A DNA stretch of 36,057 nt from an uncultured Atribacterota bacterium (GTDB lineage: Bacteria > Atribacterota > Phoenicimicrobiia > Phoenicimicrobiales > Stramentimicrobiaceae), in NCBI GenBank assembly GCA_964485485.1, contig CAZAJW010000141.1, positions 1 to 36,057 of the forward strand, written 5' to 3'. Under the pieces are notes generated by a model. It was given only the letters and a program-made list of their open reading frames with translations, made no database searches and was not told the origin of the DNA. Shown in pieces: positions 9,716 to 36,057 of the stretch (its first letter is position 1; each line of letters opens with the position of its first letter). The position numbers and the translations under genes are program-made.

Positions 9716-10024
9716 TTATTTCTTTTCATTATCATTTTTAATATTTTTAGCTTGCTTGCTTTGGGAAAGATTTTTAAGTTTCTTTGCTAATAATGATTTC
9801 TTACGGGCAACAGTATTTTTTGCAAAAATACCTTTTTGCGCCGCTTTGTCTAAAATAGAAATACACTGATGATAACTTTGATTAGCATCTTCTATGTTTT
9901 CACTATTAAGTGAATTTTCGAATTTCTTAATTAATGTTTTAACTTTTGATTTGTAAGCAGAATTTTTTAGACGTTGTCTTTCTGATATTTTAACTCTTTT
10001 AATGGCAGATTTTATAATAGGCAT
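9716..10024 (-). CDS. rpsT: 30S ribosomal protein S20
   Basis: MPIIKSAIKR start, DKAAQKG..KNTVARKKS; start moved to the ATG at 10024. Confidence 0.96.
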   Translation of the reverse strand: MPIIKSAIKRVKISERQRLKNSAYKSKVKTLIKKFENSLNSENIEDANQSYHQCISILDKAAQKGIFAKNTVARKKSLLAKKLKNLSQSKQAKNIKNDNEKK

Positions 10025-10066
10025 ATTAGTATCCTTTTTTCCTTTCAAAAAATATTTTGCTGGTAA

Positions 10067-10095
10067 ATTTTAACATCTTTTATGCTTAAAATCAA
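10067..10095 (-). promoter_or_regulatory. Putative sigma70 promoter for rpsT
   Basis: Minus strand TTGATT, 17 bp, TG-n-TAAAAT. Confidence 0.55.
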
Positions 10096-10144
10096 GCAGT
10101 AATAAAAACGTATCTTAAGTAAATAAATCGAGGGGTTTAAAAGA

Positions 10145-11737
10145 ATGACAAATAGTAATTACCGGGTAGCGAAATATACCGGTATAGTAATGGTTGCAAC
10201 ACTATTATGTAGGGTATTGGGATTGGGCCGAGAAATGGTGATATCAAATCAATTTGGAGCAGGACTCGAGACCGATGCGTTTTTTGTAGCCTTTATGATT
10301 CCAAACTTATTAAGAAGTTTCTTGGGAGAAGGGGCTCTCAATACTACCTTTATACCTGTTTTTTCTGATTACCTGGCATATAATAATCAAAAAAAAGCCG
10401 ATGCTTTTGCCAGTAATGTTCTTAATATTTTAATCATCACCCTGGTTGTCATTATATTGCTGGGAATCTGGGGGGCACCATTGATTGTTAATATTGTAGC
10501 CAGTGGATTCAAACAGGAACCTGAAAAATTTGAATTAACCGTCCGTTTAACTAAAATAATGTTTCCCTACATTGGTTTTGCAGCGGTAGCTGCTTTATTT
10601 ATGGGTATTCTAAATTCTTACAGGCAATTTTTTATTCCGGCATTTGCACCGGCTATGTTGAATATTGGAATAATGTCTTTTGCTTTTTTTTATTCAAAAA
10701 TCTTAGGCATATATAGCTTAACACTTGGTGTAATAATTGGCGGATTAGTCCAGGTGCTAATTCATATACCGGCATTGATAAAAAAACATTTTCATTATCA
10801 GATGATTATTGATTTTCATGAACCAGGGATAAGAAACCTTTTCCTGCTGTTGATGCCTGCAATGTTTGGCCTGGCAATTGATAAGATTAATTTTGTTGTT
10901 GACCGAATTATTGCCTCTTATCTGGCACATGGCAGCATTTCAGCTCTGTATTATGCCAATCGGCTAATGCAATTTCCACTGGGCGTATTTGGAATTGCAC
11001 TTTCAATTGCCATTCTGCCAACACTTTCCAGACATGTGGCAAAAAAAGAATTTGAGGAAATGAGAGAAAGCTTTTCTTTCGGGATAAAAATACTATCTTT
11101 TTTTATTTTGCCCTCTACTGTCGGTTTGATTGTTTTAAGCCACCCGATTATCCGGTTATTCTATGAGCATGGATTGTTTAGTTCACAAGACACCAGTTTA
11201 ACGGAAGTAGCCTTGGTTTGTTATACAGTAGGACTATTTGCATTGGCAACCCTAAGATTAGTCATCAGTACCTTTTATGCCTTAAAGGATACCAAAACTC
11301 CATTAAAGATAGGTATTTTTGTCGTTATTTTCAATATAATCTTAGACCTTATTTTGGTACGTTATTTAGCCCATGCCGGAATAGCCCTGGCAACCTCAAT
11401 TGCCGCTATTATTCATTTGATTATCCTGGGTGTCGCTTTACATAGAAAAGTAAATGGAATATTTTCCGGAGCATTATTCAGTTTTTTCTGGAAAATATGC
11501 CTAGCATCTTTTCTTATGGGACTTTCCTGCTGGCTTGTTTCCCACTATTTTGACTCTATGCTTGACCTGAATGTTAAAATAGTACAGTTTGCTCAAGTCA
11601 TCATATCTGTTATTTCAGGATTAATGATTTATTACTTTAGTGGTATAATATTGGGTATCTCGGAATTTCGAAATGCGCGACAAATAATTCGTAAAATACT
11701 TAAAGGAAAATTGAAGGAAGAGGATATAAATGCCTAG
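10145..11737 (+). CDS. murJ: Lipid II flippase MurJ (MviN type)
   Basis: [53 protein letters not shown]; many TM segments. Confidence 0.96.
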
Positions 11738-15869: not shown

Positions 15870-16060
15870 TATAACTATGAAAACCACCTTCTCAGAAGGT
15901 GTAATGGTTAGATTAATTGGTTTCAATATGAAATAGACGAAGATAAGAAATATATTAATTTTTCACCAGGAGTTCAATGTAGGAAGTTTGATTGCTAAGA
16001 AAAAGCTAAACCTCTTTTAATGGTTCTTAAACTTAACCGCTATGCGGGTGCAATATTTAT
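15870..16060 (+). repeat. Dispersed structured intergenic element, copy A
   Basis: 5' hairpin CACCTTC/GAAGGTG with TAACTAT/ATGGTTA, core AATTTTTCACCAG, 3' CCGCTATGCGGGTGCAATATTT; similar to copies B, C, D. Confidence 0.8.
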
Positions 16061-16085
16061 TTATCTTCATAAATGGAGGCTAAGA

Positions 16086-21660: not shown

Positions 21661-21688
21661 TTGATATTTTTTTGTTCTGTGCTATAAT
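21661..21688 (+). promoter_or_regulatory. Putative promoter of the nusA-infB operon
   Basis: TTGATA (21661-21666), 16 bp, TG-c-TATAAT (21683-21688). Confidence 0.7.
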
Positions 21689-21713
21689 ATAATAAATTTC
21701 AAAAATTTTTTTT

Positions 21714-21746
21714 AAAAGAGTGGTTTGTGGACCACTCTTTTGTTTT
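21714..21746 (+). terminator. rimP/nusA-operon leader hairpin (attenuator-like)
   Basis: AAAAGAGTGGT / ACCACTCTTTT 11-bp stem followed by T-rich tract; resembles the AGAGTGG...CCACTCT hairpin seen upstream of rimP-nusA operons. Confidence 0.75.
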
Positions 21747-21757
21747 GTAATTTTAAT

Positions 21758-22008
21758 ATTTAATTTAACCATAAAAAATTACCTTCTTAGACTTAGAAGG
21801 TGGTAATGGTTAAATTAAATGGTTTACCATAAAAAGATTAAGATAAGCTAGATGACAATTTTTTACCTGAAGCCCAAAGTTGGAAATAATATTGCTTAAA
21901 TAATATTATAGACTAAAATTAAATAAAAAATAGAAAGAAAAATGTTAAAAAGTTAAAACTCTTTTAAAGATTTTTAAAGTCACCCGCTATTTGGGTGCGA
22001 TATTTACT
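21758..22008 (+). repeat. Dispersed structured intergenic element, copy B (full length)
   Basis: 15-bp stem 21758-21772/21806-21820, core AGCTAGATGACAATTTTTTACCTGAAGCCCAAAGTTG, 3' CACCCGCTATTTGGGTGCGATATTTACT; colinear with reverse complement of 35691-35925. Confidence 0.92.
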
Positions 22009-22080
22009 TGTAATATTTACAAAAATATCCTAAATCATCATTCCCAAAATAAAAGGGGAGGATTAAAAGGTTAAGAAGCT

Positions 22081-23148: not shown

Positions 23149-23207
23149 TTGATGAAAAAAGCAGGAATATTAGCGATTAATAATATTTGTAATATACCTA
23201 TAATGTA

Positions 23208-23296
23208 AAGACGAAGAAAAAAATATCTGACAATTTTCACCTGAAGTCCAAAACAGGAGGCTATTAAAGCCAATTGCTAAGCGGGTGCGATATTTG
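23208..23296 (+). repeat. Dispersed structured intergenic element, copy C (short)
   Basis: TGACAATTTTCACCTGAAGTCCAAA core joined almost directly to TTAAAGCC...GCGGGTGCGATATTTGC; lacks 5' hairpin and A-rich middle. Confidence 0.8.
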
Positions 23297-23311
23297 CTTA
23301 GAGGAATAATA

Positions 23312-33474: not shown

Positions 33475-35688
33475 ATGGCAAAAAATATTAAGAGGCATTA
33501 CTCAATAAGAAAAAGAGCTTTAGGTATCATCATCATTGCAATTGCTATCTATTATTTATTTTCCATATTATTTCCTGCAAGCAGCTTTCTATTTATTAAT
33601 GTTATTATAAATAATATTAATAAATTAATCGGGCTTGGAAAATATTTTATTTTCTTATTCTTAATAGTAGAAGGAATATGCCTTTTATTTAATTACCGTT
33701 TTCAAAATTATTATAATAAGATTTTCGGGATAACAACTTTAGTATTAATAATCCTGGTTTTCATTCATCTAAAATTAATCTTTATTGATCATGCCTATTT
33801 ACTGGCAAGAGATGGAGCAGGTGGTGGATTATATGGATTCTATCTAGCAAGATATCTTAATAATTATTTTGGTTTAACCGGGGCATATCTTTTCCTTATT
33901 GCCCTTGGCCTAATTGCCATTCTATTTATCACCGATGTTTCTTTTCTTTATGCCATTAGCTTATTCTTCAGTAAAATTTACCAGATACTCAGTAAGCTCT
34001 TTTCCGGCATAATAACAAAAAGAAAAGTAATAGAAAGACCAAATAAAGAAAAAACTATTAGTATTTATTCAGATAAGCAAGACGAACCCAAAAAAAGTCC
34101 GGAACCTATTTTTAGCAAGAAATTTCCTTCCAAAGCGAAAAAAAATAGTGAGCCGGCGATACAGGGGAAGATTAATTTCTCTGTTAAAAATAAGGATAAT
34201 ATTAATGGAAAGGCTAAAGATAACAAATATATTATACCACCTACTAACTTATTAAATGAAGTAAAAAAAGAGCATAGAGCAAAAGGTCAAGAAAAAATAA
34301 AGAATAATATCATATTGCTGCAAAAAACATTAGATAATTTTGGTATCCAAGGAGATGTAATTGGAGCAACACAGGGACCGACAGTTACAAGATATGAAAT
34401 ACAGCCGGCACCGGGTGTTAAAGTGTCAAAAATTACCAATCTCAGTAATGATATTGCTTTGGCCTTTGCTGCAGCTTCCGTGAGAATAGAAGCACCAATT
34501 CCAGGCAAAAATGCCATTGGTATTGAGGTACCTAATAGGGAAAAAGATACTGTATTACTAAGGGAAATTCTTGAATCAAAAGACTATCAAAATAACTCAC
34601 TTATTTTGCCTATTGCATTAGGAAAAGATATTGGTGGAAAGAATATTATCGCAGATTTAGTTGATTTGCCGCATTTGCTTATTGCTGGTTCTACCGGTTC
34701 CGGAAAAAGCGTGTGTCTTAATTCAATTATTTTAAGTTTATTATATCGTTTTGGACCTGAAATGATAAGGTTTGTGATGGTTGATCCAAAGAGAGTTGAA
34801 CTAAATGTTTATAATGGAATACCTCACTTGATTATTCCAATTATCACCAATACAAAAAAAGTTGACAAAGTATTGAACTGGGCTATTTCTGAAATGGAAA
34901 ACCGATTTAAAATATTTGCTGAAGTAGGTGTCCGTAATTTAAAAGGATACCATGAATATATGAAAAGTATAAAAACAGATGAAGAACCTTTACCATATAT
35001 AGTTATTATTATTGATGAATTGGCAGACTTGATGTTATCTTCGCCAGTCAAGGTAGAAGAAGCTTTATGTAGATTAGCACAAATGACCAGAGCTACCGGA
35101 ATTCATTTAATTATCGCTACCCAGAGACCTTCTGTAGATATTATTACCGGCTCGATAAAGATAAATTTCCCATCACGTATTGCTTTTGCAGTTTCAACAC
35201 AGGTGGATTCAAGGACCATTTTAGATGTTAACGGAGCTGAAAAATTATTGGGAAATGGTGACATGTTATTCTCACCAATAAATGCGTCTAAACCAATACG
35301 TGCCCAGGGCTCTTTTGTTTCTGAAAGAGAGATTAAAAATATTGTTTCCTTTTTAGAAGATAATGGACCTACACCTGATTATAAGGAAAATATCCTTAAT
35401 CATAAAAAAACCCAGGAAAGTTTAATAGAAGAAGAGAATGAGGAGGAAGAAGAAGATGAATTGTTTGAAGATGCCGTTGATACCATTATCAATAATAACC
35501 AGGCCTCAATATCAATATTGCAAAGAAAGTTAAGAATAGGTTATACCAGGGCTGCCCGCTTGATAGATATTATGGAAAAAAAAGGAATGGTTGGGCCATA
35601 TGATGGACGGAGTCCAAGGAAGATACTACTTTCTAAGGATGATTATTTATCAAGAAAAAATAATTATGATACTCAGGAAAATGAATGA
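33475..35688 (+). CDS. ftsK: DNA translocase FtsK/SpoIIIE
   Basis: N-terminal TM region, GPTVTRYE, RIEAPIPGK, PHLLIAGSTGSGKS, DPKRVEL, ATQRPSVD, gamma domain LQRKLRIGYTRAARL; start moved to ATG 33475. Confidence 0.98.
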   Translation: MAKNIKRHYSIRKRALGIIIIAIAIYYLFSILFPASSFLFINVIINNINKLIGLGKYFIFLFLIVEGICLLFNYRFQNYYNKIFGITTLVLIILVFIHLKLIFIDHAYLLARDGAGGGLYGFYLARYLNNYFGLTGAYLFLIALGLIAILFITDVSFLYAISLFFSKIYQILSKLFSGIITKRKVIERPNKEKTISIYSDKQDEPKKSPEPIFSKKFPSKAKKNSEPAIQGKINFSVKNKDNINGKAKDNKYIIPPTNLLNEVKKEHRAKGQEKIKNNIILLQKTLDNFGIQGDVIGATQGPTVTRYEIQPAPGVKVSKITNLSNDIALAFAAASVRIEAPIPGKNAIGIEVPNREKDTVLLREILESKDYQNNSLILPIALGKDIGGKNIIADLVDLPHLLIAGSTGSGKSVCLNSIILSLLYRFGPEMIRFVMVDPKRVELNVYNGIPHLIIPIITNTKKVDKVLNWAISEMENRFKIFAEVGVRNLKGYHEYMKSIKTDEEPLPYIVIIIDELADLMLSSPVKVEEALCRLAQMTRATGIHLIIATQRPSVDIITGSIKINFPSRIAFAVSTQVDSRTILDVNGAEKLLGNGDMLFSPINASKPIRAQGSFVSEREIKNIVSFLEDNGPTPDYKENILNHKKTQESLIEEENEEEEEDELFEDAVDTIINNNQASISILQRKLRIGYTRAARLIDIMEKKGMVGPYDGRSPRKILLSKDDYLSRKNNYDTQENE

Positions 35689-35690
35689 TT

Positions 35691-35925
35691 GAGTAAATAT
35701 CGCACCCGCATAGTGGGTGGCTTTAAGAACCTCTAAAAGAGGCTTAACTCTTTTTCTTTCGTTTTTTGATTTAATCTTTGGCTATAATGTTTCTTAAGCA
35801 ATAGCTTTTCAACTTTGGGCTTCGGGTGAAAAATTGTCATCTAGCTACTATTAATATTTTTATGGTAAAAACAATCTATTTAACCATTACCATTTCTTGG
35901 AAGGTGGTAATGGTTAAATAAAATA
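35691..35925 (-). repeat. Dispersed structured intergenic element, copy D (full length, inverted)
   Basis: 16-bp stem 35877-35892/35905-35920; reverse complement contains AGCTAGATGACAATTTTTCACCCGAAGCCCAAAGTTG and CACCCACTATGCGGGTGCGATATTTACT. Confidence 0.92.
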
Positions 35926-36030
35926 TATTAATTGAAATAAAAAAAGGAACGTATTATTATATTAGTAAGTGTGACGATGCTTTAACAATAAATCATATGA
36001 TTGATAAAATATATTTAATAAAAAATAACT

Positions 36031-36057
36031 GAAAGGAGGATTTGATAAAAGTAAAGT
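36031..36057 (+). other. Strong Shine-Dalgarno of the next gene, which runs off the window
   Basis: GAAAGGAGG at 36031-36039; gene not identifiable. Confidence 0.5.

Follow-up and report, generated by a model that had tools for sequence, protein, structure and literature searches.

The window, by which we mean the whole stretch of DNA analysed (36,057 nt), is contig C141 in the assembly of an uncultured Atribacterota bacterium (2.34 Mb, 357 contigs, 34% G+C, 96.5% complete, 7.2% contamination). A profile hidden Markov model (HMM) with 247 positions, for which 45 full copies served as input, detects four copies of one repeat in it. Copy A (15871..16060, plus strand) lies between hrcA and grpE, for which the HrcA and GrpE domains were confirmed, and is internally deleted with both ends kept (HMM positions 3-245, E = 1.6e-35). 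Copy B (21765..22007, plus strand; E = 4e-52) is full length and occupies the leader of nusA, with a terminator-like hairpin on one side and the nusA ribosome-binding site on the other, directly after the target TAAT (21761-21764); the NusA domains were confirmed. Copy C (23203..23297, plus strand, left edge approximate) is short and decayed, lies between nusA and ylxR, and was matched by the profile as two pieces (23207-23262 and 23257-23298).

Two other features of the window deserve mention. Ahead of copy B and nusA, a strong sigma-70-like promoter (TTGATA-16-TATAAT, 11 of 12, with TG) stands before a 13-pair hairpin with a T-run (21661-21742). This hairpin is kept in genomes G001, G006, G007 and G008, its 3' arm and T-run are conserved in G002, and it may be a NusA-type leader terminator. 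The idea that copy B had split a promoter of the empty site was dropped, since that promoter was not listed in the consensus scan. A T-box leader occupies 1352-1552 (Rfam RF00230; 99 bits against a gathering score of 93), and the gene downstream of it encodes an 890-aa class I tRNA synthetase with a valyl-tRNA synthetase C-terminal arm. The T-box was the sole match in a scan of the whole window at the Rfam gathering thresholds, which returned nothing on the repeat.

Copy D (35693..35917, minus strand) is a full-length, non-autonomous element of ~225 nt placed antisense after ftsK. Its profile match covers 35692-35922 (HMM positions 2-247, E = 6.5e-55), and each boundary is ambiguous by one T, so that 35692-35916 is equally possible. 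The target tetranucleotide TTAT (35918..35921, minus strand) forms its left flank, outside the element. The palindrome of its left end (LE; 35877..35920, minus strand) is a long 'TTACC' variant without the AAAA guide run, found in 10 of the 46 full copies; folded as DNA it reaches -14.3 kcal/mol (z = -6.90), with none of 200 shuffles as good. A loose Rfam scan of 35600-36057 gave only chance-level matches of microRNA type on this palindrome, and no terminator-like site was called in copy D.

An initial annotation of this DNA had described two subterminal hairpins at the 3' end of copy D, in a minus-strand string that maps to 35692-35745, and both hairpins were confirmed. The first, CCTCT-TTT-AGAGG (35730..35742, minus strand), has a counterpart in the parent element described below that overlaps the tnpA stop codon. 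The second, CACCC(AC)TAT(GC)GGGTG (35703..35719, minus strand), is the presumed TnpA-binding hairpin and is homologous to the CCACC...GGTGG hairpin found at both ends of IS200-clade elements. Directly 5' of its foot stands AAAG (35721..35724, minus strand), the presumed right guide tetranucleotide, and 5 nt past its nominal foot stands TTAC (35693..35696, minus strand), the presumed right cleavage tetranucleotide, followed by T35692; the fourth base of AAAG pairs with the fourth base of the terminal TTAC. As single-stranded DNA, the 62-nt right end (RE; 35689-35750) folds into these two hairpins with -8.1 kcal/mol (z = -2.34; 4 of 200 shuffles equally good). The second stem of copy D is weakened by one G-to-A change, and the homologous right end of the autonomous element folds with z = -5.21 (0 of 200 shuffles as good). 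A repeat search within the window found the right end of copy D again at ~16000-16062, 21823-22009 and 23257-23299.

An abundant family of intergenic repeats

A regular expression for the terminal 15-mer, with up to two mismatches, matched 123 times in the genome, and the profile HMM matched 229 times, or 183 once overlaps were removed. Together the 183 span 27,283 nt, or 1.17% of all assembled bases, and are spread over 101 of the 357 contigs. They are matches rather than elements, as copy C is counted twice and one locus was assembled three times (C289, C307 and C301). Repeat loci with the same flank assembled two to three times, these three contigs and also C48:6791 and C133:11061, point to redundancy or strain mixture (contamination, 7.2%). 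Matches accumulate at contig ends: 42 of 183 lie within 300 nt of one, a zone that holds 9% of the bases.

By class, 46 matches are full length (~245 profile positions), 49 are without the LE (5') hairpin, a class that includes a few contig truncations, 50 are short right-end matches, 15 consist of the LE (5') hairpin only, 12 are left parts and 11 are of other kinds. The 5' palindrome, TTTATTTAACCAT...ATGGTTAAATAAA, stands alone at 15 places in the genome, for example C16:4828-4886 and C308:88-150. Many 'short' copies are internal deletions in which both termini persist, some of them joining the LE hairpin directly to the last 25-30 nt; this retention is expected if both ends are needed in cis.

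The edges of the repeat are sharp. On the right, conservation drops from ~0.8-0.9 to 0.3-0.4 directly after ...GATATTTACT, the very boundary at which the initial annotation saw similarity among the copies stop; on the left, it begins abruptly at TTTATTTAACCAT. Each end has a subterminal hairpin, and the CCACC...GGTGG form is common to LE and RE. In the alignments the left and right ends are not inverted repeats of one another, and terminal inverted repeats are lacking.

The stems show one-sided decay. In the first RE hairpin, the stem cells of 129 copies comprise 655 Watson-Crick pairs, 90 G-T, 62 A-C and 81 others. In the second, the seven stem pairs show G-T over A-C by only 98 to 52, and compensatory changes are almost absent. 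RNAalifold on the 45 full copies returned almost no consensus structure.

The 95 long copies have a median pairwise identity of 72% (5th-95th percentile, 61-85%), and in a younger subfamily copies from different loci are up to 97.6% identical. By sequence, copies that have the LE hairpin do not group apart from those that lack it, the nearest neighbour being of the same class in 44 of 95 cases, against a chance expectation of 49.5%. The LE hairpin is flanked by direct repeats, ACCATAAAAA. The simplest reading is that loss of the LE hairpin is recurrent, through slippage, and not inherited; copies without it are probably dead.

The repeat is almost exclusively intergenic: the midpoint falls inside an ORF of at least 100 aa for only 2 of 168 copies, in an assembly that is ~77% coding by the same crude ORF call. 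It is also strongly oriented. The majority of coding DNA within 5 kb runs in the same direction as the repeat for 142 of 168 copies, and between co-directional genes every long copy shares their direction (21 of 21 full and 18 of 18 hairpin-less, 39 in all), as do 30 of 35 short ones. The distance from the right end to the next co-oriented ORF has a median of 87 nt (n = 101). According to a passage in PMC5027513, the IS200/IS605 family inserts into the lagging-strand template. The bias may come from such a mechanism or, equally well, from selection. On the antisense strand of copy B, the LE hairpin followed by a T-run was called terminator-like, and the A-run of at least five that would give rise to such a T-run is found in 30 of the 46 full copies.

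A transposase-bearing relative and its recognition rule

We searched 41 related genomes for Y1_Tnp domains and scanned the loci obtained with the repeat profile. On contig C36 of G036, one 570-bp unit contains the left end of the repeat (HMM positions 2-89, E = 4e-14), an ORF of 147 aa and the right end (HMM positions 147-245, E = 1e-11), whose two hairpins overlap the end of the ORF. The encoded protein, which reads MSKWKKLSHTIYQCKYHIVW...HIHMIL..., scores 149.8 bits against the NCBIfam model transpos_IS200 (cut-off 55) and 141.9 bits against Pfam Y1_Tnp, and in its alignment with ISDra2 TnpA (2xm3; E = 2.8e-28) the HUH motifs and the tyrosines of the two proteins coincide. The element encodes TnpA alone. 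In a protein search of 52 genomes of the order, this TnpA recurred in six genomes, every one from the sister family, with identities of 88-100%. Complete 570-bp copies number four, in G036, G049 and G050 (two in the last), and truncated ones lie in G025 and G044. All four complete copies have TTAT before them and T after them. The ends of the sister-family element are homologous, but not identical, to those of the repeat.

No cognate TnpA was found in the window's own genome (tblastn best E = 2.9), and at the level of at least 88% identity it was found in none of 21 same-family genomes, against 6 of 30 in the sister family. These are fragmented metagenome-assembled genomes whose contigs break at repeats, and the missing tnpA is therefore not taken as a true absence. 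The initial annotation had proposed a search for tnpA or tnpB genes flanked by the same ends: tnpA with homologous ends was found in genomes of the same order, none was found in the own genome or the 21 of its family, and the own genome gave no match to TnpB-type domains.

The own genome gave five Y1_Tnp matches, namely three RAYT-like genes (C122:2203-3030, C72:99-1136 and C321:1830-2627) and two fragments; the C72 protein has a DnaA C-terminal helix-turn-helix. The other Y1_Tnp loci of relatives (G001, G007, G009, G011, G014, G015, G019 and others) were rejected as parents, being different IS200/IS605 elements: their TnpAs are 31-45% identical, and the repeat ends do not flank them. Among them, a tnpA of G001 that adjoins a full repeat copy belongs to another IS with other hairpins. 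This element (L024, G001:C133, ~1389-1935) lies immediately beyond the right end of a full-length copy, encodes a TnpA of 39% identity and has the hairpins CCCCACCTGTAAAGGTGGGG and CCACGCCTGTAAAGGCGTGG.

TnpAs 56-70% identical to the parent's occur in Bacteroidota, Spirochaetota, Truepera and other groups, in elements of like layout. The left end reads TTAN, ~10 nt, a 4-nt run and a CCACC...GGTGG hairpin, and the right end a 4-nt run, a hairpin of the same type, 5 nt, TTAN and then T. Throughout this clade, the base just 5' of each hairpin, the fourth of the run, is Watson-Crick complementary to the N of TTAN. At the right end, complementarity was found in 37 of 37 parsed loci (G-C 20, T-A 12, C-G 3, A-T 2), out of 83 loci of which the unparsable ones were dropped and with a regular expression that demanded TT at the opening of the right tetranucleotide. 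At the left end it was found in 69 of 71 parsed loci (A-T 25, C-G 24, T-A 20), out of 80 from which 7 without a parsable hairpin and 2 too close to the locus edge had dropped out. Complementarity between guide and cleavage site is the recognition rule of IS608. The repeat follows it, with AAAA/TTAT on the left and AAAG/TTAC on the right. Covariation of guide and cleavage site was absent within the own genome, where 70 of 113 show complementarity and 64.6 would be expected (Fisher p = 0.27); decay of the copies once inserted would account for this, yet it lends no support.

Empty sites, target and distribution

The nusA region of G001, a genome of the same genus, is collinear with the window at 88-93% identity, but copies B and C are absent from it. 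The empty site of copy B is exact: G001 reads ...CTAAT^TTGTAATATT, whereas the window reads ...TTAAT, the element (TTAACC...TTTAC) and then TTGTAATATT. In a longer view, ...TAGTATCTAAT is joined to TTGTAATATTTAC in G001, and in the window ...TAATATTTAAT is followed by the element, from TTAACC to ...GATATTTAC, and then by TTGTAATATTTAC. For copy C, G001 reads ...CTATATTTTAT^TTAGAGAAT, with the junction ...TTTTAT^TTAGAG, and the copy in the window ends ...GATATTTGC^TTAGAGGAAT. Copy D is absent from G002 and G006, in which the end of ftsK runs straight into the ATTGAAATAAAAAAA flank. The comparison of orthologous intergenic regions that had been proposed at the outset thus finds presence at these loci to vary among relatives. 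Neither outcome that the initial annotation had named as fatal to its reading is borne out: the lineage does contain autonomous elements with homologous ends, and the repeat is not invariably present at the same loci.

A repeat copy of G001 (L050, G001:C148, ~9900-10260) has the same right-end junction with the end of ftsK as copy D (window 35689-36057). Its interior is of another subtype and its left flank is unrelated to that of copy D, which may mean that two copies have recombined or that a further insertion took place.

The empty sites end in TAAT or TTAT, and no target duplication was seen at them, a single T being unassignable to element or flank. Save for this one ambiguous T, the alignments and the empty sites agree with the initial annotation, which had reported neither terminal inverted repeats nor a clear target duplication. 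Among the 90 copies whose left end was parsed by regular expression, the four bases before TTAAC.. are TTAT in 60. Of 120 copies, 64 have TTAC as their last tetranucleotide, and in 115 the base that follows the last tetranucleotide is T. The contigs of four metagenome DNA runs held no polymorphic empty allele of copy B; the only joints in them came from other copies with internal deletions, and there was a depth spike over the repeat.

The distribution of the repeat is patchy. It is present in 19 of the 41 related genomes, comprising the own genome, 13 of 21 of the same family and 5 of 19 of the sister family, and was not found in three genomes of this set that are 98-100% complete.

Nature of the repeat and relation to known systems

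Taken together, our results make it very probable that the repeat is a gene-less, non-autonomous MITE or 'PATE' derived from a 570-bp insertion sequence of the IS200 group (IS200/IS605 family). The reading of the right end of copy D as that of a non-autonomous IS200/IS605-type element, put forward in the initial annotation, is supported by the homologous 570-bp copies that bear tnpA. Two features of the family speak against this reading: 49 long copies are without the LE hairpin that it requires, and compensatory changes are almost absent from the RE hairpin. Of the parent, the derivative keeps both ends, a few bases at the start of tnpA and the last part of that gene. The left end has a presumed AAAA guide followed by a hairpin, and the right end two hairpins, a presumed AAAG guide and the terminal TTAC. 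By analogy with IS608 and ISDra2, TnpA would bind the CCACC...GGTGG-type hairpins on the single-stranded top strand and would be directed to its cleavage sites by base pairing between each guide and the tetranucleotide at which the strand is cut. The top strand would be excised as a circle and inserted 3' of TTAT in a single-stranded target, with no duplication. Mobilisation by TnpA acting in trans is inferred, since no cognate tnpA was found in the own or 21 same-family genomes, and the repeat may or may not still be mobile.

The initial annotation had named as a weaker alternative that the repeats are guide-RNA (omegaRNA) scaffolds of TnpB or IscB, with the variable 3' flank serving as the guide. 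Such RNAs do derive from IS200/IS605 right ends, and the similarity among the copies ends exactly at the right end. However, searches with Cas12f1-like_TNB (PF07282) and OrfB_IS605 (PF01385), which give matches in 8 of 14 control genomes, gave none in this 96.5%-complete genome, no Rfam family matched the element even at a loose threshold, and the 570-bp parent holds tnpA alone. We consider this explanation extremely improbable. Hardly better placed, though a little less remote, is the proposal that the repeats are REP- or REPIN-like and are kept or cross-mobilised by the RAYT-like Y1 proteins of the genome rather than by an IS200 TnpA. The genome has three such proteins (265-345 aa), which score 79.8, 70.6 and 50.4 bits against REP_Tyr_transpos (cut-off 80), and no cognate TnpA was found in the own or the 21 same-family genomes. 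The contigs with these genes (C122, C72 and C321) measure only 2.3-3.0 kb, and two of the genes come within ~100 nt of a contig end. No copy of the repeat was detected by the profile on these contigs, whose shortness leaves the flanks incomplete. The ends of the repeat match those of the tnpA-bearing IS base for base in architecture. REPs are palindromes of 20-40 nt with a GTAG or CGTC head. Furthermore, Y1_Tnp occurs in 39 of the 41 genomes (RAYT-like and IS200 types pooled), the repeat in 19.

A third explanation sees in the repeat a vertically inherited cis-regulatory RNA, such as a leader, a stabiliser or a processing site, and not mobile DNA. The placement of the copies speaks in its favour, as they are intergenic, often with a start codon no more than ~100 nt downstream, the 39 long copies that stand between co-directional genes all run with them, and copies A, B and C lie within or head the hrcA-grpE and nusA-ylxR-infB operons. 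Against it stand a genome of the same genus in which such loci are empty, the patchy distribution across genera, the homology to a transposase-bearing element, the decay of the stems on one side without compensation, and the lack of relation among the genes downstream of the copies. As an origin, an inherited regulatory RNA is refuted, and we give this reading next to no weight; later co-option of single copies is possible. The repeat might also have outlived its transposase as a tolerated, perhaps useful, one-way insulator or 5'-UTR module in transcripts of the window's family, a speculation that we regard as unlikely. If it were true, transcription would pass through sense copies in two essential operons (hrcA-[A]-grpE; [B]-nusA-[C]-ylxR-infB) and would stop at the antisense LE hairpin with its T-run, and any recent spread (97.6% identical copies at different loci) would need cross-mobilisation by the RAYT-like Y1 enzymes.

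As a miniature derivative of an IS200-group element, the repeat belongs to a known class of selfish mobile DNA, newly documented here in Atribacterota; a literature search of main texts found no paper joining Atribacter* with IS200 or MITE terms. The phylum gains a very abundant IS200-derived miniature element together with a compact 570-bp parent. Much of the intergenic repeat content of these Atribacterota assemblies, and many of their contig breaks, can be put down to this element, and its identification should keep the hairpins from being annotated as regulatory RNAs. The clade around the parent TnpA is in addition a natural demonstration, with four different base pairs, of the guide/cleavage rule of single-strand transposases, and the rule could predict the targets of IS200-group elements from sequence alone.

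Enterobacterial IS200 (IS200 group of the IS200/IS605 family) was compared by way of an IS200F copy carried by a plasmid of Salmonella enterica (locus L147). This IS is likewise small and TnpA-only, with an LE hairpin upstream of tnpA and a TnpA 46.5% identical over 86% of the query. The likeness to the enterobacterial IS200 right end, noted in the initial annotation, holds for IS200F: a hairpin with a CTATG loop is followed by ATATTTATT, and the element ends CCTCCGGCTATGCCGGAGGATATTTATT. The corresponding stretch of the repeat is CTATG and then GATATTTACT. In contrast to IS200, the repeat carries no tnpA, and its stems read CCACCCG where those of IS200 read CCTCCGG. IS200 is ~700 bp long, and the Atribacterota parent, with 570 bp, is shorter.

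With IS608 and ISDra2 the system shares a Y1 HUH TnpA, subterminal hairpins and complementarity of guide and cleavage site. PMC5027513 states, in one of its passages, that the left end of IS200/IS605 elements inserts 3' of a specific tetra- or pentanucleotide. Both IS608 and ISDra2 also carry tnpB, and their targets are TTAC and TTGAT, compared with TTAT, perhaps TTATT, here. They are the mechanistic models of single-strand 'peel and paste' transposition.

REPs and REPINs resemble the repeat as abundant intergenic hairpin repeats tied to a Y1 HUH enzyme, and the genome does have RAYT-like genes. The repeat differs in being far longer, in its distinct left and right ends, in having a true IS parent and in not flanking the RAYT-like genes.

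Also close are PATEs (palindrome-associated transposable elements), which have reportedly been described in Haloquadratum walsbyi. In an account given in PMC7290912, PATEs are short IS200/IS605 derivatives with palindromic ends only, thought to be moved in trans by a transposase, and one PATE is recorded there for Halanaerobium hydrogeniformans. The PATEs described stem from tnpB-bearing IS605 or IS1341-type elements and number a few per genome. By contrast, the Atribacterota repeat derives from a tnpA-only element of the IS200 type and has 183 matches in 2.34 Mb.
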